Assembly (NCBI GenBank): GCA_009691305.1
Contig: SICS01000002.1
Coordinates: forward strand, 1-45,038
DNA: 45,038 bases
From: Candidatus Peribacteria bacterium
GTDB lineage: Bacteria > Patescibacteriota > Gracilibacteria > Peribacterales > Peribacteraceae
Direction of reading: 5' to 3'
Shown: piece by piece, positions 5,005 to 45,027 of the stretch
Layout of the letters: the number at the start of each line of letters is the position of its first letter
How positions within the stretch are numbered: the first letter of the stretch is position 1
Translations under genes and position numbers: made by a program
The notes under the pieces: model-generated
What the model was told of the DNA's origin: nothing
What the model saw: the letters and a program-made list of their open reading frames with translations, nothing else
Databases searched by the model: none

Positions 5005-5023
5005 AATACAAGTATAGGGGAGC

Positions 5024-5062
5024 GGGCATACCTGCCCGCTGGGCAGGCAAGTATGCCTGCCC
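5024..5062. repeat. pair of GCAGGCA-N4-TGCCTGC type short hairpins in a divergent intergenic region
   Basis: GGGCATACCTGCCC (5024-5037) and GGGCAGGCAAGTATGCCTGCCC (5041-5062). The 18-mer core 5044-5061 recurs inverted at 43045-43062 and, with a different loop, at 39334-39351. Confidence 0.6.
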
Positions 5063-5104
5063 CCAGGAAACAATGCCTGCGCATATTTCCGTCGAGGCAT
5101 TAGA

Positions 5105-18786: not shown

Positions 18787-18830
18787 CCCGCAATCCGCCA
18801 TCCGAAATCCGCAATCCGCAATTATTCCTT

Positions 18831-27616: not shown

Positions 27617-27716
27617 TATCTCGATACGTTCGTGGCTCCGCCACGAACTACTCGATATGACAGGTGCTGTCATCCCGAGTAGCCCGCAGCGGAGCTGCGG
27701 GCGTAACGAGGGATCA
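27617..27716. repeat. REP-like elements, inverted doublet (copies 2 and 3; REPIN-like)
   Basis: Reverse copy at 27617-27662 and forward copy at 27668-27716 (TGTCATCCCGAGTAGC-CCGCAGC-GGA-GCTGCGG-GCGTAACGAGGGATCA), head to head. The FemAB-type gene stop (TCA 27714-27716 on plus) lies in the last 3 nt of the forward copy. Confidence 0.75.
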
Positions 27717-28712
27717 TCCCAGGAGTTTTCTCTTCATTCGAAGCAGAGTTTTTGTGACGGGACGCAGAATGATTTCCTGCTCCGGGGGATACGTGATGAC
27801 CGAGCCGCCGAACTTGGCTTTGAATTCGCTGACGCTGGCCCAGGGGTGTTTTTTTAGTGGAGACGGCGACGTCTCCGCTTGGGGGGCGATGCCGAACAGG
27901 TCGTAGGAGGTGCAGCCGTGGGATCGGCAATACTTTATGGCTTCCCACTGCAGTAAATACGGAGCCATGAGCTCCCTGTGGGCGTTGGAGGAGGCGCCAT
28001 AGTAATACGTGGCCTGCGTGCCCCAGACGACGCCCAGGAGCCCTGCCACATGCGTCTTTTGGGCGGTCATGGCCAGCATCAGGAAGCTGCCGGGCAAACC
28101 CCTCAGGAAGTGCTCGTAGAAGGCTGCCTTGTGGCCGCGGAAGCTGTCCCTGCGTGCCGTCTCTTCTCCTAGGCGGGCATAGGCCTCGGTGTCATCCGAT
28201 TGCTCGACATCGATACCATGTTTTTCGGCCAGCCGGATGTTATAGCGGCCCTTGGGTTTCATTTGGGCGAGCAGTGCCTCATCATTCAGTGTTAGATCAA
28301 GAATCCGAGTCGCTTCAGGCATGACGAATCGGCCTGAGTTGCGAATTTCGGATTTCGGATTTCGGAAAGGTAGATGTGGTGAAAAATGAATAGTGAGAGC
28401 GCCATTCTCTTTTGCATCTGCAATGATTCTTTCTATAAAATCCGTAATCCGTAATCCGTAATCCGTAATCATAAGCGGTCCGCGCGGTATCTCCCACGTA
28501 CTCAGTCCAAGACTCGTCCTATCAATCACCACGAGAGCGGAGGCCATGATCTGCTCAGCATCCATCTGCGCATAAATCCGCACCTCGCGCTGAAGAGCTT
28601 TCTGAAATTGGCTCCATTCCAGCGACTGCCACAATGAACCTTCGGGGTGCGTCTTGATCCACTGATCATAGGCATGCAAATCCTCCGGCGATGTAAGGCA
28701 ACGAATATCCAT
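27714..28712 (-). CDS. FemAB-family peptidoglycan interpeptide-bridge (aminoacyl-tRNA-dependent) transferase
   Basis: [81 protein letters not shown] are family hallmarks. Confidence 0.85.
28342..28470. repeat. inverted CGGATTN heptamer arrays inside the FemAB-type coding sequence, read through in frame
   Basis: Plus strand CGAATTT-CGGATTT-CGGATTT-CGGAAAG (28342-28369). Minus strand CGGATTA x3 plus CGGATTT (28438-28465). Translated as [11 protein letters not shown] and [10 protein letters not shown] in the track protein. Confidence 0.8.
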
Positions 28713-31086: not shown

Positions 31087-31193
31087 TCCCTCGTTACGAA
31101 ATCTGCTCCGCAGCTTTCTACTCGGGATGACATTTCGACTTGAATGTCATTCCGAGTAGCTCGCGGGGGATCCGCGAGCGTAACGAGGAATCA
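31087..31193. repeat. REP-like elements, inverted doublet (copies 4 and 5; REPIN-like)
   Basis: Reverse copy at 31087-31132 and forward copy at 31145-31193 (TGTCATTCCGAGTAGC-TCGCGGG-GGA-TCCGCGA-GCGTAACGAGGAATCA). The stop of the DHS-like gene (31191-31193) is the terminal TCA of the forward copy. Confidence 0.75.
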
Positions 31194-32367: not shown

Positions 32368-33231
32368 ATGTCCAAAAAAGTCACTATCGGCCTCGTACAG
32401 ATGTCCATGGAACATCATCCAGCCGGTAATCTGGAGTATGCCATCGAGATGGTCGCCAAAGCGGCGGACAAAGGCGCGCAGATCGTGTGTCTGCCTGAGC
32501 TCTTCCAGAGCCCGTACTTCTGCCAGAAGAAGGATGACAAAAGCGCATTCGATCTCGCAGAGCCAATCCCCGGCCCTGCAACTAAAGCGCTTTCCGAAGC
32601 GGCAAAGAAGCACAAGATCGTCCTCGTCGGTGGATCGATCTTCGAGAAGACAAAAGAGGGGACGTACTACAACACCACGCCGGTCTTCGATACCGACGGC
32701 TCGCTCCTCGGAACCTATAGGAAGACGCATATTCCCGAAGACATCCTCTATCACGAAAAACAGTACTTCAGTCCCGGCGATACCGGCATCAAGGTCTTCA
32801 AAACGAAATATGGGAAGATCTGCCCGCTGATCTGCTATGACCAGTGGTTTCCGGAAGCCGCGCGCCTCGCCACGCTCCAGGGTGCCGAGATCCTCATTTA
32901 CCCCACCGCGATCGGTGTCATCGATTCCGCAGTCGAAGAGAACATCACGGGAGACTGGGAGCAGATGTGGCGGAACGTGATGCTCGGGCATGCGGCGGCG
33001 AACAACGTCTACGTGTGCGGCCTCAATCGGGTGGGCACCGAAGGCGCCATCACCTTCTGGGGCGGCTCCTTTATAGCGGCGCCGAGCAGCGAGGTCCTCG
33101 CGAAGGCGGGTAATAAGGAGGAGATCATCCTGGCGGTATGTGATCTTGACCGGGTGAAGGCGATACAGGAGGCTTGGATGTTTTTGAAGAATAGGAGACC
33201 GGAGGTTTATGACGGACTTACGAAGCACTAA
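32368..33231 (+). CDS. aguB: N-carbamoylputrescine amidase (carbon-nitrogen hydrolase family)
   Basis: Nitrilase-superfamily Glu/Lys/Cys blocks (IVCLPELF, YRKTHIP, ICYDQWFPE). Adjacent to agmatine deiminase. Confidence 0.85.
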   Translation: MSKKVTIGLVQMSMEHHPAGNLEYAIEMVAKAADKGAQIVCLPELFQSPYFCQKKDDKSAFDLAEPIPGPATKALSEAAKKHKIVLVGGSIFEKTKEGTYYNTTPVFDTDGSLLGTYRKTHIPEDILYHEKQYFSPGDTGIKVFKTKYGKICPLICYDQWFPEAARLATLQGAEILIYPTAIGVIDSAVEENITGDWEQMWRNVMLGHAAANNVYVCGLNRVGTEGAITFWGGSFIAAPSSEVLAKAGNKEEIILAVCDLDRVKAIQEAWMFLKNRRPEVYDGLTKH

Positions 33232-33316
33232 GCACTAAACTCTAAGCCCTAAACAATATCTCAATTCCCAATGAAAAAAATTGTTTAGGATTTAGTACTT
33301 AGGATTTAGAATTTCG
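33221..33316. repeat. gene-less hairpin made of inverted heptamer arrays (CTAANNN units)
   Basis: Left arm CGAAGCA-CTAAGCA-CTAAACT-CTAAGCC-CTAAACA (33221-33255), 26-nt loop. Right arm on minus CGAAATT-CTAAATC-CTAAGTA-CTAAATC-CTAAACA (33282-33316). The aguB stop lies in the left arm. Confidence 0.8.
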
Positions 33317-34391: not shown

Positions 34392-34420
34392 GGAAAAGAA
34401 ACCGGAAACCAGAAGCCAGG

Positions 34421-34801
34421 TTAGGTGAGGGGTTGAGGTTGAGGTGTGTAGTATTTTTGGATGATGGAATGGAAAATAAGTTTCAAACTTCGAGCTTCTT
34501 TCAGGAGCGATAGTCGCTCTTGCTCAAGAGCTGGTTCAAGTCTCATATCAAACATGTCTAACCAGAACATGGATTCCTTTGCCTCCTTCCGGGAAATTTT
34601 CAGATGGTATGCACAATCTTTCTTTGTGAACGCTTCGTTGGCCTCAATATAGTTAGCACCGACAGAACCTGATGATCGAAGGAGCTGTTTTGCGTCATCA
34701 GAGTAGGCAAGTTGCTTCGGCAATTGATGGAGCCACCGGCGGATGTTTTTGCCAAAGTCAGCAGTCCTTTCGGCCAGATCCTGTCTTTCAGCATTCGTCA
34801 T
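34421..34801 (-). CDS. four-helix-bundle protein (23S rRNA intervening-sequence protein family; Avd-like)
   Basis: QLLRSSGSVGANYIEANEAFTKKDCAYHLKISRKEAKESMFWLDMF matches the family pattern. The C-terminal TPQPQPLT is encoded by the flanking repeat array. Confidence 0.8.
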   Translation of the reverse strand: MTNAERQDLAERTADFGKNIRRWLHQLPKQLAYSDDAKQLLRSSGSVGANYIEANEAFTKKDCAYHLKISRKEAKESMFWLDMFDMRLEPALEQERLSLLKEARSLKLIFHSIIQKYYTPQPQPLT

Positions 34802-39196: not shown

Positions 39197-39260
39197 ATGT
39201 TCCACACCCCCATGGAACATCCGAACGTGGCTTACATAAGAGTAAAAGTCTCCATCTCAA
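39197..39260 (+). promoter_or_regulatory. cassette-type palindrome plus conserved leader block, oriented toward ssb
   Basis: ATGTTCCACACCCCCATGGAACAT (39197-39220) followed by TGGCTTACATAAGAGTAAAAGT (39228-39249). Both match the region upstream of 4HB gene 2. Confidence 0.55.
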
Positions 39261-39333
39261 AAAGTGATCTTCTCCGACCCCCCTCCCGCGATCAGCCGGG
39301 ACTTTTTACGATGATCGACCGCTCTTTCTCCTC

Positions 39334-39351
39334 GCAGGCAGGTATGCCTGC
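39334..39351. repeat. GCAGGCA-GGTA-TGCCTGC hairpin
   Basis: Member of the short hairpin family also seen at 5041-5062 and 43045-43062. Lies 27 nt upstream of the ssb start. Confidence 0.55.
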
Positions 39352-39377
39352 ACTTCTATTTCTTTCCCCCATTTCTT

Positions 39378-39779
39378 ATGAAATCGGTGAATACTGTCAC
39401 ACTTCTCGGGAACGTCTCGCGCGATCCCGAACTTAAATCCACCCCGACCGGGCAGACCGTCTGCACGTTCGGCCTTGCCACCAACCGCGTCTGGAAGGAC
39501 GCGAATGGCGAGAAGCAGACCCTTCCCGAGTTCCACAACGTTATCGCGTGGGCTGGGCTCGCCGATCTCTGCGGCAAGTACGTCAAAAAAGGGAAGCCCC
39601 TCTACGTGAAGGGCTACCTCAAGACCCACACCTGGGAAGACAACCAGAACAAGATGAAGCACTACATGACGGAGGTCGTCATGCAGGACCTGGTGCTCCT
39701 CGGTTCCAAGTCCGCCGCGAGCGATGCTGCGGAGGAAGTGGAGGACGAGGAAAAAGAGGAAGAGGCTGTCGCTGTGTGA
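39378..39779 (+). CDS. ssb: single-stranded DNA-binding protein
   Basis: OB-fold N-terminus MKSVNTVTLLGNVSRDPELKSTPTGQTVCTFGLATNRVWKD...EFHNVIAWAGLADLCGKYVKKGKPLYVKGYL. Acidic tail ends EEEAVAV rather than the usual DDDIPF-type tip. Confidence 0.92.
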   Translation: MKSVNTVTLLGNVSRDPELKSTPTGQTVCTFGLATNRVWKDANGEKQTLPEFHNVIAWAGLADLCGKYVKKGKPLYVKGYLKTHTWEDNQNKMKHYMTEVVMQDLVLLGSKSAASDAAEEVEDEEKEEEAVAV

Positions 39780-39794
39780 TCAGCTCTGGTAAAA

Positions 39795-39826
39795 AGCCGC
39801 GGGCAGTACTGCTCGTGGCTTTTTTA
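39795..39826 (+). terminator. rho-independent terminator after ssb
   Basis: AGCCGCGGGCAG-TAC-TGCTCGTGGCT (with G-U pairs) followed by TTTTTT. Confidence 0.6.
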
Positions 39827-39981
39827 CATTCATGAAAATTATTCCCCGAACCTTATTTAGGTTCTGCAGAAACTATTCTGCCACCTAAATCAATTAGCAT
39901 CCGTGCGTGCAACTCGTTGATTCCCTGTCCGACTGTTTCATCCAAAATTCTACAGCGTCATTTACGATTGGATCCGGGGCT

Positions 39982-40305
39982 TCATTGCGTCTCTCCATCT
40001 ACCGTCCCCTCAGAGTTCAATAATTCCTCAAGTGCGTTTCTGCATTGATTTGTTAGACCTATGCCAGCGAGAGGATCCTTGTAGAGATCCTCTATGGATA
40101 TCTTTTTTCTTTCCGCGACGTATTGTGCGTGCAGCGCCTCGGCAGTATTCCTCCTTGTGTCATTAAGAGGTAATGCGTCTGCCTTCGTGAGGAGGGCCGC
40201 AATTTTTGCGTGGTCTTCTCGAGACTTGGCATTAATCTCACGCAAAAGCCTGACTTCTGCCGCAAGCTCTTGCTCAGGCCGTATTTTTGGAGAAATCTCA
40301 GTCAT
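39982..40305 (-). CDS. hypothetical protein (107 aa, AT-richer)
   Basis: Clean ORF with helical, charged composition. TTGACA-type -35 and AT-rich -10-like sequence close to the ATG on the minus strand. No family recognised. Confidence 0.4.
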   Translation of the reverse strand: MTEISPKIRPEQELAAEVRLLREINAKSREDHAKIAALLTKADALPLNDTRRNTAEALHAQYVAERKKISIEDLYKDPLAGIGLTNQCRNALEELLNSEGTVDGETQ

Positions 40306-40391
40306 TGCCGCAGTATTATGCCATTTTTATGAATGTCAATTATTCACGTCATTTCCCCGCCTTTCCCCCTCTCCAAAAGGCTTTTTTCTCC

Positions 40392-40419
40392 TTGACCCCC
40401 CTCCCGCCCCGAGTAAAAT
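40392..40419 (+). promoter_or_regulatory. candidate rRNA promoter (TTGACC-N16-TAAAAT)
   Basis: TTGACC at 40392-40397 and TAAAAT at 40414-40419, about 310 nt upstream of the 23S 5' end. Followed by a leader hairpin ACCCGCAGGAAT...ATTCTGCGGGT. Confidence 0.4.
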
Positions 40420-40695
40420 CCCTTCGCTCTATGCAGCTTCCCGTCCACCCGCAGGAATAGTGTCGTTTTGACTACTAATTCTGCGGGTGTGCGTGAGCCA
40501 CCCGCTTTTTTTATCCCCTGATAATAAAGCAGCCTGACCGGTCGTTTGCTCGTCTGCTCGGGTGTGTGGTGCTCCTTCTTCCTCGCCGTGCTTCTTGTCA
40601 GCATCGGAAACCGTTTGTAGCGAAGACTTCTTCATCGCTACAGACACAATAAAAGAGAATCAATTCATTAGTATTTTGTGAACAAGACTGGAGTA

Positions 40696-40724
40696 GTACC
40701 CAGCTTGTAGCACATGAACAGTAT
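40696..40724 (+). other. 5' strand of the 23S processing stem (pairs with 44786-44814)
   Basis: GTACCCAGCTTGTAGCACATGAACAGTAT is complementary, apart from a few mismatches or G-U pairs, to ATACTGTTCGTGTGCTACAACTTGGGCAC downstream of the 23S. This is a typical RNase III stem arrangement. Confidence 0.7.
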
Positions 40725-41385
40725 TTTTTGAGAAATGTTACTCATCGCAACACATGGATGCCTCGACTCTGCATTCCGATGAAGGACGTGGCCAGCAACG
40801 ATATGCTTCGGTGAGCCGCTAGGCAGGCGTTACCAGCCGAAGATTTCCGAATGGGGAAACCCCACGAGAGTTCTGTCTCGTGATCCGCTCACGCGGAAGG
40901 TCACTCTGTGAACTGAAACATCTCAGTAACAGAGGAAAAGAAATTAAATTAAAGATTCCCCCAGTAGTGGCGAGCGAACAGGGATCAGCCCAAACCGCGT
41001 ACTTGTACGCGGGGTTGTAGGACCTCGATATGTGATTCCTTCCTTTATAGAAGAACGTCCCTGGAACGGGCGGCCATAGAGGGTGATAGCCCCGTAAGCG
41101 AAATAGAGGAAGACACTAGAGGAATCCTGAGTAGGGTCGGACACGTGAAATCCGGCCTGAATCCGGGTGGACCACCATCCAAGGCTAAACAGATGCAGAG
41201 ATCAATAGCGGATAGTACCGTGAGGGAAAGGTGAAAAGCACCCCGGAAGGGGGATGAAATAGTCTCTGAAATGTGTTGCGTCCAAGGAGTCGGAGCGGAC
41301 TTGTTCCGTCACGACGTTCCTTTTGCATAATGAGCCAACGAGTGTGTTCTCAGTGGCGTGGCTAAGGCAGTTTCCTAGCCGGAGC

Positions 41386-41417
<32 letters not shown>

Positions 41418-41812
41418 TCGCTGGGACACGACCCGAAACCGGGTGAGCTATCCATGAGCAGGTTGAAGCCCGCCGAAAGGCAGGTGGAGGACCGAACCAT
41501 AGCGTATCGCAAGACGTTGGGATGACTTGTGGATAGGAGTGAAAAGCTAATCGAACCCGGAGATAGCTGGTTCTCCTCGAAATGCCTTTAGGGGCAGCCT
41601 CGTCGGGCACGGCGGGGGGTAGAGCGACTGTTTGGATGCGGGAGTCACCTCGACTTACCAAATCCTGACAAACTCCGAATACCCGCCTTTAATGCCGACG
41701 GGAGTGAGACAGTGGCAGCGAATTGCCATTGTCGTAAGGGAAAGAGCCCTTACCATTCGCTAAGGTCCCAAATTATCGTTCAGTGGGAAAGGTGGTGTAT
41801 GTGCATCAACAA

Positions 41813-41843
<31 letters not shown>

Positions 41844-42177
41844 TAAAGAAAGCGTAACAGCTCACTGGTCGACGCACGTATGCGCCGAAAACTCAACGGG
41901 GCTAAACGATAAACCGAAGCGGTGGATCTCCTATGTCCTTCGGGACGTAGGTGGTGGTAGAGGAGCGTTCCGTTCAGCTGTGAAGCAGTGTTGTGAAGCA
42001 TTGTGGAGCGTACGGAAGCGAGACTGTTGGCATGAGTAACTACTAGGCAGGTGAAAACCCTGCCCGCCGAATCCCCAAGGTTTCCCACGCAACGGCAATC
42101 GGCGTGGGGTTAGTCGGTCCTAAGGTCAGGCCGAAAGGCGTAGCCGATGGATAACAGGTCAATATTCCTGTACTTCT

Positions 42178-42345
42178 CGGGAATCGATAAAAGGGCGGTC
42201 GTTGAGAGTTTTACGAGCCTCTGTCTCTACCATTTTGTACATATACATAGACGCAGGTCTTCGACCTGCGGATCGCGCGTCGAAGACGCGCGCTATGTGT
42301 CCAAGATGGTAGAGATATGTTCGCGAAAAAGGATACTTCCGTTCT
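42178..42345 (+). other. ~150-nt insertion / expansion segment in 23S domain III
   Basis: Between CCTGTAC and GTGACGGGATGGGAAG, E. coli and Bacillus have about 25-30 nt and this gene has about 175 nt. It contains stem 42224-42233/42306-42315 enclosing two hairpins (GCAGGTC-TTCG-GACCTGC and GCGCGTC-GAA-GACGCGC). Confidence 0.6.
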
Positions 42346-42801
42346 AGGAGCGGTGTGACGGGATGGGAAGATCGCAGCGTGCGCATTGACTGCACGTGTA
42401 ACACGTAAGACGTTGAGAGTGGTAGGGAAATCCGCCACTTGAGTCGAGCGTGGAATCCAAATGGCTCCCGCGAGGGGGTCGAGTGCGTACCTTTCCGTCT
42501 CCAAGAAAACCATCGCTCACAGAGTTCCGGGAAACCGTACCGCAAACCAACACCGGTGGGGTGGTCGAGTAGACCAAGGCGAACGGGAAAACTCGCGTTA
42601 AGGAACTCGGCAATGAAGCGTCCGTAACTTCGGGATAAGGACTACCAGTCTGTAGTGGATTGGTTGCAACAAAAGAGGTCAGGCGACTGTTTATCAAAAT
42701 CACAGGTCCCTGCTAAGCTGCAAAGCAATGTATAGGGGCTGATGCCTGCCCAGTGTCAGAAGGTCACGTAAGGGGGTTTACGCCTCCGAACTAAGCCCTG
42801 A

Positions 42802-42855
<54 letters not shown>

Positions 42856-43044
42856 GGTCGAATAACCCCGTACCAGTCGCGCTTCGGCGCTCCGGTACAG
42901 GGCATGCTTGCCCGAATGATCAGCAATGATCAGCACTGAGGAATTTTTTCTAGATTTTGATAGTAAGTCTCGCGGTCGAGACCCGCGATGCCCCAAGCGA
43001 AAGCAAAGGGCGATCTCATAATTATTTTTTTGTTGGCGCCGAGC

Positions 43045-43062
43045 GCAGGCATACTTGCCTGC
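43045..43062. repeat. GCAGGCA-TACT-TGCCTGC hairpin inside the intron
   Basis: Exact reverse complement of 5044-5061. Confidence 0.6.
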
Positions 43063-43494
43063 AAAGAGTTAAGGAATCTCTCTAAAAATTCTGATTACAG
43101 ACCGTATTGTGGATACCATTCACCCCACGTCGCTCGCTTCGGCGAGCTATGCGGGGCAAACAGTGTAAAACGTCGCCATATGCTGGAACATCCGAGTATC
43201 CCCTATGCCGTAAGGTACGGGGTGCGGACAATCAGCAGGAAAGAATTTCTTATTTTTCTTCCATTCATTATGACACGTACCAAAGAATCTCCGGCTCTCG
43301 ACGACAAGCAATTGCCGAAGGGAGTAGATGGATACAATCTCGCCTTGATTGAAGCGGCACCTGCTGCCATTTGGCAGTTAGGTTTTGCAGAGATATGCGG
43401 GAATTACCGTCAGGAAATTCAGGAGTGCGGTGCATTCAGTGAATCGGATAATAAGAACTGATCCTCAGAGACTTTACGCGATGCCCGCGACTTG

Positions 43495-43540
43495 TTCCTC
43501 GTTACGCTCGTGACTCTGTCACGAGCTACTCGGAATGACA
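43495..43540 (-). repeat. REP-like element copy 6, in the P8 loop of the intron
   Basis: Minus strand reads TGTCATTCCGAGTAGC-TCGTGAC-AGA-GTCACGA-GCGTAACGAGGAA. Flanked directly by the P8 stem CCGCGAC/GTCGCGG. Confidence 0.75.
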
Positions 43541-43621
43541 GTCGCGGAGATGATAAAGTCCGATCCCTGTGGCGACACAGGGCGCGCGAAATTGAAGCGC
43601 GGCTAAAAAACAATCGTTATG

Positions 43622-43667
43622 TCCCTCGATACGAAAATCGCTCGGCGATTTTCTACTCGGGATGACA
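43622..43667 (-). repeat. REP-like element copy 7, in the 3' peripheral region of the intron
   Basis: Minus strand reads TGTCATCCCGAGTAG-AAAATCGC-CGA-GCGATTTT-CGTATCGAGGGA. Confidence 0.7.
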
Positions 43668-43725
43668 TAGGTGTAAGTGCGCTCCTGCAAGGGAGATCTC
43701 GGTTCACCACCGAGAGGAACGCGCT

Positions 43726-43790
43726 GAATTGAAAATTGATAATTGAAAATGGGAAATTATTTTCCATTTACCATTTTTCATTTTTCATTC
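43726..43790. repeat. AT-rich inverted heptamer-array hairpin near the intron 3' end
   Basis: AATTGAA-AATTGAT-AATTGAA-AATGGGA-AATTATT facing, on the minus strand, AATGAAA-AATGAAA-AATGGTA-AATGGAA. Confidence 0.7.
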
Positions 43791-44361
43791 GCATGTTTAT
43801 GAAGTTCCGACCCGCACGAATGGTATAACGGTCTGATCACTGTCTCGACGCGAGGTCCGGTGAAATTTCAATCCTGGTGCAAATGCCAGGTAGACCACGG
43901 TAGGACGAAAAGACCCTATGAAGCTTTACTGTACGCTGACATTGTTTCGTTGATTTGCGTGCGCAGAATAGGTGGGAGGCTTTGAGGCTCTAGCTTCGGT
44001 TAGGGCGGAGCCAACTTTGAGATACCACCCTCGCGTTTCGCCGAAACTCACCCTGTCTCTGAAACAGAGCGGGGGACAGTGTTTGCCGGGCAGTTTAACT
44101 GGGGCGGTTGCCTCCTAAAGTGTAACGGAGGCGCGCAAAGGTCCACTAGCGCCGGATGGAAATCGGCGTTGTCGTGTAATCGCACAAGTGGGCCTGACTG
44201 TGAGACTTACAGGTCGAGCAGGGACGAAAGTCGGTGATAGTGATCCGGCAGCCGGACAACTTATACTTGTCCTTACCACGTGGGTGGGCTGTCGCTCAAC
44301 GGATAAAAGTTACTCTAGGGATAACAGGCTGATCGGTTCCAAGCGCCCACAGCGACGAACC

Positions 44362-44478
<117 letters not shown>

Positions 44479-44518
44479 TGGCCTCTATCCTCCGTGGTCA
44501 CTTAGAAACGTGAAGAAA

Positions 44519-44551
<33 letters not shown>

Positions 44552-44609
44552 AACCTCTGGTGTACCTGTTGTCGCGTCAGCGGCATTGCAGGGTAGCTAT
44601 GTTTGGACG

Positions 44610-44642
<33 letters not shown>

Positions 44643-44785
44643 CCTTCTGAGATTGCGTTTCTCCATCAGCCCGCCGGAAGACGACCGGCTAGATCGGCCA
44701 CAGATGTACGTGCGGCAACGCATTCAGTCGAGTGGTACGAACGGGCAATTGAACATTTTTCAACCTTAGCCTTTAACAGCTAGGG

Positions 44786-44830: not shown

Positions 44831-44878
44831 TGTCACCCCGAGTAGCTCGTGACGGAGTCACGAGCGTAACGAGGGGCA
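44831..44878 (+). repeat. REP-like element copy 8, in the 23S-5S spacer
   Basis: TGTCACCCCGAGTAGC-TCGTGAC-GGA-GTCACGA-GCGTAACGAGGGGCA. The stem is nearly identical to that of copy 6 but in the opposite orientation. Confidence 0.75.
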
Positions 44879-44908
44879 ATAATTGATTCTTCAAATCATG
44901 AGTGCAGT

Positions 44909-45027
44909 GTTCTGGTGCTTTTTGCGGCGGGGTCACACCTGATCCCATTCCGAACTCAGCAGTTAAGCCCGCCAGCGCCGATGGTAGCTTCCCAGAACGG
45001 GGCGCAAGAGTAGGTCAGCGCCAGAAC
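44909..45027 (+). rRNA. rrf: 5S rRNA
   Basis: Helix I GTTCTGGTGC / GCGCCAGAAC. Conserved CCTGATCCCATTCCGAACTCAG, GCGCCGATGGTAG and AGAGTAGG blocks. Flanked by a short processing stem ATGAGTGCA / TGCACTCAT. Confidence 0.93.

Follow-up and report, generated by a model that had tools for sequence, protein, structure and literature searches.

The stretch of DNA analysed here, referred to as the window, comprises 45,038 nt of a Candidatus Peribacteria contig (SICS01000002.1) and carries a full-length 23S rRNA gene of the bacterial type (40731-44762, Rfam). In a global alignment with E. coli 23S rRNA, this gene is interrupted by one insertion of 946 nt (42856-43801), located after position 1950 of the 2903-nt E. 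coli annotation. The site corresponds to U1951 in standard numbering, which a manual comparison with m5U1939 and m5C1962 confirmed, and lies in helix 71 at the subunit interface. The upstream exon ends in ...TTGTCGGGT, its last base being U, the downstream exon begins with AAGTTCCGACC, and the boundaries of the insert, which runs from GGTCG to TTTATG, leave no room to slide. A first-pass annotation had already placed a 946-nt insert ending in G after U1951, and both the 23S alignment and the reading of the sequence agree with it. A separate IVS-like hairpin insertion of 127 nt is found in the same gene at 42196-42322.

Table 1. Features of the L1951 insert and its exon borders (window coordinates)
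Feature	Position	Strand	Evidence or remark
5' exon strand of P1, UCGGGU	42850..42855	+	complementary to 42910-42915; duplex -9.8 kcal/mol
Intron, 946 nt, after 23S U1951	42856..43801	+	E. coli 23S alignment, sequence reading, homology to 16 other L1951 introns
UUCG-capped hairpin inserted in P1 loop	42866..42902	+	absent in 12/17 relatives
Internal guide, CUU (P10) and GCCCGA (P1)	42907..42915	+	CTTGCCCGA
P2 hairpin, UGAUCA / GCAA loop / UGAUCA	42917..42932	+	6/6 pairs compensated; 99% paired, 16 sequences
Expanded P2.1 region	42933..43170	+	90-328 nt across the family
P3 5' strand	43171..43176	+	pairs with 43478-43483; RF00028 alignment agrees
P4	43181-43186 / 43232-43237	+	RF00028 alignment; invariant
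P5	43191-43194 / 43225-43228	+	one covarying pair: G-C n=10, C-G n=6
P5a, GUAA tetraloop	43200-43222	+	within 43181..43237, RF00028 alignment
P6, GG/CC	43238-43239 / 43463-43464	+	encloses L6; whole P6 region 43238..43464
P6a	43247-43254 / 43450-43457	+	closes L6 insertion
63-codon ORF in L6	43270..43461	+	homologues in other introns of the family
P7 5' strand, GAGACTTTA (GAGACUUUA)	43468..43476	+	bulged A43469; pseudoknot with P3; R/S elements classical
P3 3' strand	43478..43483	+	covariation
P8	43485-43492 / 43540-43547	+	folded in each copy
REP hairpin filling P8 loop	43495-43540, within P8 43485..43547	+	matches 31145-31190, 44831-44880
P7 3' strand, TAAAGTCC (UAAAGUCC), 3' of J8/7	43554..43561	+	pairs with 43468-43476
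P9 (GCGA tetraloop, 43565-43582) and P9a	43565..43601	+	P9 100% paired, 4 covarying pairs; P9a 5/5 covary
REP hairpin between P9a and P9.1	43620..43667	+	same family as 27668-27712, 31088-31132, others
P9.1 (GCAA loop) and P9.2 (43697-43702 / 43710-43715)	43682..43715	+	P9.2 99% paired, 5 covarying pairs
Hairpin of two 7-nt repeat arrays, 3' tail	43727..43789	+	tandem-repeat finder and fold
Terminal G (omega G)	43801	+	invariant in 16/16 introns
3' exon P10 bases AAG(U)	43802..43805	+	complementary to (G)CUU at 42906-42909
Ligated-exon junction (predicted)			TTCCTTGTCGGGT joined to AAGTTCCGACCCGC

The insert is one of at least 17 homologous L1951 introns that make up a family, all of them from Peribacteria/Peregrinibacteria (CPR) genomes. 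BLAST blocks are 75-94% identical to 11 of these introns, and the closest genome, L092 (23S 92-95% identical), carries a homologous intron at the same site. An Rfam scan of the whole window at the gathering threshold, which is curated at 50 bits for the group I model RF00028, did not find the intron. A permissive scan gave a match of 29.3 bits (E 2.8e-5) covering 43125-43582, which spans P2 to P9 and bridges a 215-nt insertion in P6. The model match proposed as a check on the group I reading is therefore significant, although its 29.3 bits remain below the gathering score. This low score results from the bloated state of the intron: the most compact homologue, L009 (404 nt), reaches 62.3 bits and passes the threshold, and the shortfall of the window copy is in keeping with two insertions, of 215 nt and 47 nt, that have to be bridged in the alignment.

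Comparison of 16 members revealed that 49 base pairs, covering P2-P7, P9, P9a, P9.2 and the P3/P7 pseudoknot, are paired in 96.0% of cases, as opposed to 79.6% in shuffled alignments and 36-46% when the partners are slid. Both sides are altered in 24 of the 49 pairs (131 cells in total), and none of 500 shuffles matched the observed pairing and covariation values. P8 was excluded from this count because the MAFFT alignment was out of register there, and each copy was folded individually instead; P8 and P6a fold in every member despite differing sequences. The pairwise alignment with L156 is unreliable past P6. All family-invariant positions are retained in the window copy. Helices P3 to P9 with the P3/P7 pseudoknot are thus present and covary, and the model match, the homologous family and the compensatory changes in P2, P3, P5, P7, P9, P9a and P9.2 support the identification of the insert as a group I intron, as the first-pass annotation had read it.

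The same data allow an exact placement of P3-P6, which had previously been left unplaced, by RF00028 alignment and covariation. P3 is 99% paired and alternates between CGUCGC/GCGAUG and CGUGGC/GCCACG, and the joining segments J4/5 and J5/4 (within 43181..43237) are A-rich. In every member with an L6 insertion, a P6a stem of differing sequence closes it. P7, P8, the GCGA-capped P9 and the UUCG and GUAA hairpins all lie where they had been proposed. P7 contains one compensated pair (A-U in 13 sequences, U-A in three), and no family member departs from G43470-C43560, the bulged A43469 or G43468-C43561. P7 is the guanosine-binding helix; its G-C binding pair, next to A43469, is assigned on the analogy of Tetrahymena P7. 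The intron therefore combines this putative binding pair with an invariant terminal G43801.

Both guide pairings are available at the level of sequence, namely UCGGGU/GCCCGA for P1, which places a U.G wobble pair, formed by the last U of the exon strand, at the 5' splice site, and CUU/AAG for P10. The guide string CTTGCCCG is invariant in 16/16 aligned introns. P1 and P10 lie beyond the reach of a covariation test, since exon and guide do not vary; the proposed guide, wobble and terminal G are conserved throughout the family. The guide had also been noted to lie about 50 nt into the intron, behind a hairpin. These coordinates hold, and the distance is explained by the hairpin having been inserted in L1: in relatives that lack it, L1 measures 11-15 nt, and splice site and guide are 11-15 nt apart. 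L156 also has the L1 hairpin, with a compensated C-G to A-U change.

All the extra length resides in peripheral loops (L1, P2.1, L6, L8 and the P9 periphery) and the core is free of insertions. The length of the intron is due to expansion at six peripheral positions: L1 contains the hairpin, P2.1 is enlarged, L6 has an insertion of 223 nt, one REP hairpin lies in L8 and a second one after P9a, and the 3' tail carries a heptamer hairpin. The P2.1 region has a conserved GUCUC-N4-UCGAGAC-N4' motif (42967-42990) together with a GCAGGCA hairpin (43045-43062) and a REP-like hairpin (43123-43156). L6 ranges from 16 to 298 nt across the family. The stretch of about 450 nt that had been described as lying between P1 and the core resolves into a P2.1 expansion of some 240 nt before P3 plus the separate insertion in the P6 loop. 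P8 is a hairpin of 15-19 nt in eight relatives and of 34-136 nt in others, an element similar to the post-P9a hairpin occupies the same place in L081, L092 and L148, and the 3'-tail heptamer hairpin is absent from compact relatives.

The view that three repeat families have colonised the intron is borne out by copy counts, tandem repeats and folds, and the REP copies do occupy the P8 loop and the 3' periphery (43495-43540 and 43620-43667). In the 45-kb window, CTACTCGGGATGACA-type (REP) hairpins occur in eight copies where 0.09 would be expected, forming a dispersed, palindromic and over-represented family, and all of them fold as the same two-tier hairpin. GCAGGCA-N4-TGCCTGC hairpins are found in five copies (0.26 expected), those at 5022-5080 and 39334 included, and heptamer-array hairpins at several loci; all three families are also present in the window outside the intron. 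Like REP-type repeats, the REP copies are short palindromic hairpins that are dispersed in non-coding DNA and have conserved flanks. They differ from usual REP in that they lie in ribozyme peripheral loops and the 23S-5S spacer, and in that the inner 9-bp stem varies in sequence while its pairing is kept.

No homing endonuclease could be found in the intron. A Pfam search of the insert ORFs yielded no match, and a LAGLIDADG profile derived from related L6 ORFs, which matches a control intron at 1.7e-45, gave no match in any of the six frames of 19 family introns. The lack of an endonuclease, first noted for the window copy, thus extends to all 19 sampled family members, and the gene that would mark a mobile intron (LAGLIDADG, GIY-YIG, HNH or His-Cys box) is missing. 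A 157-codon ORF (42988-43461), suggested as an endonuclease candidate, has no Pfam match and runs through P2.1 and P3-P6. It does not hold as a unit: relatives conserve an open frame only over the final 63 codons (43270-43461), and the upstream part appears conserved only because the RNA is. Since neither the intron nor the sampled family has an endonuclease, the intron has most likely been passed on by vertical descent within Peribacteria, and not by active homing.

The 63-codon ORF in L6 represents a family of small proteins of 61-65 residues with the consensus P.G.DPF...YR..IQ.CGAF.EP. This orphan family is known from Peribacteria L1951 introns only, and a set of 1.8 billion representative proteins includes about nine of its members. 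Its pN/pS is 0.39-0.82 in frame and about 1.0-1.7 in shifted frames, and differences are distributed over the three codon positions as 262/220/402. The ORF is under purifying selection with a coding-type conservation, and is probably translated. Searches of the protein against Pfam, NCBIfam, PHROGs and PDB matched nothing, and an origin as a LAGLIDADG remnant is ruled out by nil profile similarity. Two structure prediction runs gave one helix and pLDDT values of 55.6 and 61.4, a quality insufficient for fold comparison. The ORF is located in L6 of four introns and in the P2.1 region of a fifth, which suggests that, like endonuclease genes, it may shift position inside the intron as a cassette. 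Other family members have unrelated open frames of 50-96 codons in the same L6 position; those of L042, L030, L081, L092, L148 and L217 have no detectable similarity to the window ORF or to each other. The Peribacteria L1951 lineage may conceivably have exchanged the usual endonuclease for other selfish or useful cargo, the orphan protein, but we regard this as rather unlikely.

Taken together, the insert is very probably a group I intron located after U1951, in helix 71 of a Peregrinibacteria (CPR) 23S gene, that is spliced out with ligation of the exons. In the proposed mechanism, the intron would be transcribed as part of the pre-23S rRNA, and the guide would pair with the last six exon bases to form P1, with the U.G wobble positioned at the splice site. 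The 5' splice site would be attacked by an external guanosine held in P7. G43801 would next occupy the same P7 pocket, the 3' exon being kept in place by the guide through P10, and exon ligation would restore helix 71. The intron is thus predicted to be self-splicing; the large L1, L6 and L8 insertions could slow its folding or make splicing dependent on proteins.

Three other explanations were weighed. The intron might be decaying or defective in splicing, and be either retained in (part of) the 23S rRNA or dependent on a host factor. The missing endonuclease, the periphery heavily invaded by repeats and the sub-threshold Rfam score are in line with decay, and the title of reference 28 in PMC11270868 reports an "unspliced group I intron" for Simkania (L1931). 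Against it, all family-invariant core positions are kept and the differences in helices are compensated, which points to continuing selection on the fold. Moreover, the insertions avoid the core entirely, and a 946-nt insert retained in helix 71 at the subunit interface should be harmful, so that decay appears improbable. The chance is smaller still that the insert is an IVS excised by RNase III without ligation, leaving a fragmented 23S rRNA. IVS elements are common in bacterial 23S genes, and the 127-nt IVS-like hairpin shows the type within this very gene. However, the insert contains a group I core that covaries and includes the P3/P7 pseudoknot, its ends form no terminal stem (the duplex between the first and last 60 nt has -11.1 kcal/mol, compared to -13.2 +/- 2.8 in shuffles), and the site is known for introns, not for IVS (PMC11270868). 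A chimera placing a foreign intron in the 23S gene can practically be dismissed: the sequence is probably metagenome-assembled and rRNA genes are prone to misassembly, but 42827-44118, both junctions included, is 100% identical in contigs of three other sequencing runs, making the assembly reproducible, L092 carries a homologue of the intron at this position and the insert holds the REP family of its own host genome.

Reading the insert as a spliced group I intron has consequences for annotation, as the 23S gene is then intact and the 946 nt are neither a fragmenting IVS nor an ORF-bearing spacer. Threshold-based Rfam scans under-count such CPR introns; here the core is standard, and the score falls below the threshold because host repeats and cargo fill six peripheral loops. 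That an intron lacking an endonuclease is kept at one site throughout a class-level clade bears on the persistence of introns after loss of the homing gene. A small, conserved orphan gene occupies the cargo position, and its function is open to direct test; should its product have a part in the maintenance, mobility or splicing of the intron, it would constitute a new class of intron-encoded factor.

The first-pass annotation had pointed out that rRNA insertions are frequent in CPR bacteria and that L1951 is a known group I site in Coxiella burnetii, and the literature agrees on both points (PMC11270868; PMC1995217, PMC4990558). Group I introns in CPR 23S genes, which Brown et al. (2015), cited in PMC11270868, were the first to note, are common and include position 1952, a site named 23IS8 by Tsurumaki et al. 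(2024) (PMC11270868). These introns share host group, gene, site and class with the present one, and their detection by Rfam is likewise often marginal. LAGLIDADG_1 genes are reported there as the predominant cargo at this site, whereas the Peribacteria family has none and some of its members carry the 61-65-aa orphan ORF instead.

The self-splicing Cbu.L1951 of Coxiella burnetii (720 nt) resembles the Peribacteria intron in its identical site, the exon ending in U and a TTGCCC guide core, but encodes an endonuclease, a 157-aa LAGLIDADG ORF (PMC1995217, PMC4990558), which the Peribacteria intron lacks. A genome search with the junction pattern AAATTCCTTGTCGGGTB gave at least 120 matches; most of those listed are mere A1952G substitutions or chance matches outside rRNA, and Coxiella burnetii is not among the matches listed. 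The comparison was therefore made through proxies for Cbu.L1951 such as L054, a Coxiella-like gammaproteobacterial L1951 intron of 743 nt with a 151-aa LAGLIDADG ORF, which matches RF00028 weakly and in a different placement. L054 and its like do not share the Peribacteria core strings: the 11 recovered non-Peribacteria L1951 introns lack the P, Q and R strings and have an S-like string near the 3' end. The missing strings suggest that two structural lineages share this site, and Coxiella-type and Peribacteria L1951 introns, compared through these proxies, appear to be distinct in this sense.

Structural relatives are found at other sites. The L1917, L1923 and L1931 introns of Thermotoga, Synechococcus C9 and Simkania, which have a LAGLIDADG gene in P6 (PMC1995217), share with the Peribacteria intron the P5'-J5/4-P4'-P6 string TGSGGACAATCAGCAGGRAA, the R/S elements and the use of L6 as a cargo site. 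They differ in site and guide, and in that their L6 cargo is an endonuclease. The same string occurs in metagenomic relatives at L1912/13, L1917, L1923, L1931, L2262, L2500 and L2604, and many of the metagenomic relatives at other 23S sites have 146-224-aa ORFs of the GFVDGEGCF type in L6. The kind of intron is already known, group I introns having been described at the same site in CPR bacteria and in Coxiella, and the intron of the window is a new member.

A complete bacterial 23S rRNA gene, followed by a 5S rRNA gene, was located in the window with Rfam (Table). Global alignment against an E. coli 23S sequence revealed one 946-nt insertion and several short ones. The large insertion follows position 1950 of the 2903-nt annotation, which is U1951 in standard numbering when counted from m5U1939 and m5C1962; site and length proposed in the first-pass annotation are thereby borne out. 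The insert starts with GGTCG, ends with TATG and is flanked by TTGTCGGGT upstream and AAGTTCCGACC downstream. Three contigs (L244, L245, L246) assembled from the separate public runs SRR12053440, SRR8561391 and SRR8561390 are 100% identical to positions 42827-44118, both junctions included, which excludes a one-off misassembly and indicates that the organism recurs across samples. The 23S exons are nearest (92-95%) to those of L092, a groundwater Candidatus Peregrinibacteria genome. Two further insertions lie near E. coli positions 300 and 1425; the latter, of 127 nt, forms an extended hairpin of high stability (about -65 kcal/mol including flanks) and resembles either an expansion segment or an intervening sequence of the RNase III type. 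Neither a 16S rRNA gene nor a tRNA was found upstream of the 23S gene within the window (39200-40730), and the rRNA operon here comprises 23S and 5S only, so that the 16S gene appears to be unlinked or more than 1.5 kb away.

The 946-nt insert is a group I intron whose core is intact and selected, and on sequence grounds it is predicted to splice. Rfam at curated thresholds reported no intron in the window; a permissive scan of the region gave a significant match to the group I intron model RF00028 (29.3 bits, E 2.8e-5), though below the gathering score of 50 bits. The alignment covers P2, P3, P4, P5, P6, the R element, P3', P8, the S element and P9, skipping 215 nt in P6 and 47 nt in P8. Relatives were sought, in one genome per species, as occurrences of the exon string with any base but A after it. 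Among the matches listed, most represent an A1952G substitution, at least 23 are insertions at the L1951 site, and 11 insertions start with GGTC, usually GGTCG, with CTTGCCCG downstream. In these 11 the motif lies 11-15 nt from the intron start, a distance that an inserted L1 hairpin raises to 42-60 nt. The 11 insertions measure 404-1294 nt, all occur in genomes labelled Peribacteria, Peribacteraceae or Peregrinibacteria, and each has four or five conserved blocks in common with the window insert (75-94% identity, BLAST). With 62.3 bits against RF00028, the most compact of them, the 404-nt L009, exceeds the gathering score. Seven more family members, L148, L156, L194, L217, L242, L247 and L248, came from a metagenome scan and from contig look-ups.

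Pairs of P2, P3, P4, P5, P6, P7, P9, P9a and P9.2 were set from the window copy and counted over a 16-sequence family alignment. Paired cells amount to 96.0%, compared with 79.6% in column shuffles and 36-46% when the 3' partners are slid by 1-3 columns, and 24 of 49 pairs (131 cells) are changed on both sides, a value reached by 0 of 500 shuffles. Nearly every pair of P2, P9a and P9.2 covaries, P3 alternates between CGUCGC/GCGAUG and CGUGGC/GCCACG, and P7, knotted with P3, carries a compensated A-U to U-A change, window copy included. P4 and P6 are invariant and hence uninformative either way, P8 and P6a are out of register in the alignment although every copy still folds to a stem of its own sequence, and for P1 and P10, whose exon and guide sequences do not vary, covariation is impossible. 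The P1 with U-G wobble and the P10 with AAG suggested previously pair exactly (UCGGGU/GCCCGA with the U.G at the end; CUU/AAG). Invariant features include the terminal G of the intron and, in P7, a G-C pair adjoining the bulged A, which we take to be the guanosine site by analogy with Tetrahymena. The alternative of an RNase III-type intervening sequence is opposed by the two ends of the insert, which do not pair into a stem, and the group I reading is supported jointly by the RF00028 match, the homology to the L009 family and the covariation.

Some conserved elements lie outside the counted helices. All 16 introns open with GGUC. The helix 71 strand of the 3' exon contains CGACC, the complement of GGUCG, and a conserved ACC in the P9.2 loop matches GGU in the same way. 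A P2.1 motif, GUCUC-N4-UCGAGAC-N4', is also conserved, with covariation between its two N4 blocks among family members (GCGG/CCGC, ACCG/CGGU, AUGA/UCAU, ACAC/GUGU). Its GUCUC and GAGAC could pair too, forming a possible pseudoknot.

Element lengths were taken between fixed anchors, and the core between L1, the P2-to-P3 segment, L6 and P8 is of constant length. The extra material of the window intron consists of the L1 hairpin, an enlarged P2.1, the L6 insertion and three repeat hairpins. The guide does lie about 50 nt into the intron behind a hairpin, as first noticed, because of the L1 insertion. P3-P6, not placed with confidence in the first-pass annotation, could be placed by the RF00028 alignment and the covarying pairs; the 240 nt of P2.1 ahead of them had made them hard to locate.

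Table. Coordinates of features in the window and, where applicable, element lengths in the window intron and its family
Feature	Position	Remark
23S rRNA gene	40731-44762
23S insertion	41023-41056	near E. coli 300
23S insertion	42196-42322	near E. coli 1425
Group I intron	42856-43801	after U1951
GGUC	42856-42859	intron start
L1		51 nt (family 11-60 nt)
UUCG hairpin in L1	42866-42902	common to L156, compensated change
Guide	42907-42915
P2-to-P3 segment		229 nt (family 90-328 nt)
P2.1 motif	42967-42990
RF00028 match	43125-43582
L6		223 nt (family 16-298 nt)
ATG of 63-codon ORF	43270
P8		66 nt (family 15-136 nt)
REP-like hairpin in L8	43495-43540	approximate
REP-like hairpin 3' of P9a	43620-43667	approximate
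ACC in P9.2 loop	43706-43708
Hairpin of two 7-nt repeat arrays	43727-43789	in intron
CGACC, helix 71 strand	43810-43812	3' exon
REP-like hairpin	44831-44880	approximate; 23S-5S spacer
5S rRNA gene	44911-45026
Other REP-like hairpins	231-275, 27620-27662, 27668-27712, 31088-31132, 31145-31190	approximate
Other heptamer-array hairpins	18788-18822, ~28345-28470, ~33223-33314, ~34397-34445

The 20-nt string TGSGGACAATCAGCAGGRAA (P5'-J5/4-P4'-P6) marks 23S group I introns at at least eight sites on metagenome contigs (L122-L241), namely L1912/13, L1917, L1923, L1931, L1951, L2262, L2500 and L2604; several contigs (e.g. L128, L156, L184, L200) have two such introns per gene. Where L6 measures 420-510 nt in the metagenomic introns that share the string at sites other than L1951, it codes for proteins of 146-224 aa, each with one LAGLIDADG motif of the GFVDGEGCF type. 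A profile built from these proteins matched the control, a gammaproteobacterial L1951 intron (L054), at 1.7e-45 and, in six frames, 0 of 19 Peribacteria-family introns. Pfam gave no match in the 157-aa ORF or the other ORFs of the insert, in agreement with the earlier failure to recognise an endonuclease.

In the L6 insertion of the window, one sense frame is open over 98% of the length. Six of seven other family insertions are open over 95-99% and that of L092 over only 58%, with shuffle p values per insert of 0.004-0.18. The window frame encodes, from its ATG, a 63-aa protein, whose relatives are the L6 ORF of L059, the C-terminus of P0003 (encoded on L242), P0004, P0005 and, from 1.84 billion representatives searched exhaustively with HMMER, P0007, P0009, P0010 and P0012; the remaining matches of that search were repetitive false positives only. 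Eight aligned members have the consensus P.G.DPF...YR..IQ.CGAF.EP in common. Among five members with DNA, third-position differences are in excess in 10 of 10 pairs (totals 262/220/402), and pN/pS is 0.39-0.82 in frame versus about 1.0-1.7 in two shifted frames; the protein-guided alignment flatters pN somewhat, and the signal persists in ungapped pairs. The 157-codon ORF was rejected as the gene in favour of the 63-codon one, since its upstream part shows no conservation at the protein level and the frame in which L6 is entered varies among members. The libraries searched gave no name for the 63-aa protein, and confidence was low in both structure predictions. The homologous ORF of L247 (236-430; product P0009, the closest to the window ORF at 44% identity in the eight-member alignment) is found upstream of P3, in the P2.1 region, instead of L6; within the intron, the small ORF thus acts like a cassette that can move. 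L6 of L247 (578-736) holds a second, unrelated acidic ORF of 52 codons (MSENPKERIEELEERL...). The L6 insertions of L042, L030, L081, L092, L148 and L217 (170-300 nt) have open frames of 50-96 codons, which in all but L092 take up almost the entire insertion in sense orientation; no similarity of these frames to each other or to the window ORF was detected. A more speculative and less likely reading is that the small protein is a new kind of intron cargo.

The proposed colonisation by three genomic repeat families stands, since all three recur elsewhere in the window. The REP-like palindromic hairpin CCCTCGTTACG-N9-CTCCG-N9'-CTACTCGGGATGACA has 8 copies (0.09 expected) and the GCAGGCA-N4-TGCCTGC hairpin 5 (0.26 expected), and heptamer-array hairpins occupy further loci. 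The REP-like element has an unusual two-tier design, with conserved outer flanks and CTCCG loop around an inner 9-bp stem whose sequence is particular to each copy but always paired. Its copies frequently form inverted pairs (27648/27668, 31118/31145), and further Peribacteria genomes (L081, L092, L148, L247) have it in their introns too. Both arms of the heptamer hairpins are tandem 7-nt units that differ per locus, for example ATTTCGG x3 opposite AATCCGT x4.6. They also occur in the introns of relatives (L012, L030, L092, L217) and appear to be characteristic of these Peregrinibacteria genome-wide; we know of no described family that matches them.

Group I introns at L1951 are already known, as the first-pass annotation had noted, and the window intron belongs among them. 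Coxiella burnetii has a 720-nt intron at this site with a 157-aa LAGLIDADG ORF (PMC1995217), which is self-splicing (PMC4990558). In a survey of CPR rRNA genes, 82% of 23S genes carried insertions, of which 45% fitted the group I model of Rfam, and position 1952 was listed as one of the sites with predominantly LAGLIDADG_1 genes (PMC11270868). Unlike these known introns, the window intron bears an orphan ORF and its whole family is without an endonuclease. By its core strings the family groups with L1917/L1923/L1931-type introns and not with the other L1951 introns recovered; TGSGGACAATCAGCAGGRAA is missing from those of Actinobacteria, Gammaproteobacteria, Omnitrophota and others, which suggests that two unrelated intron lineages occupy L1951.
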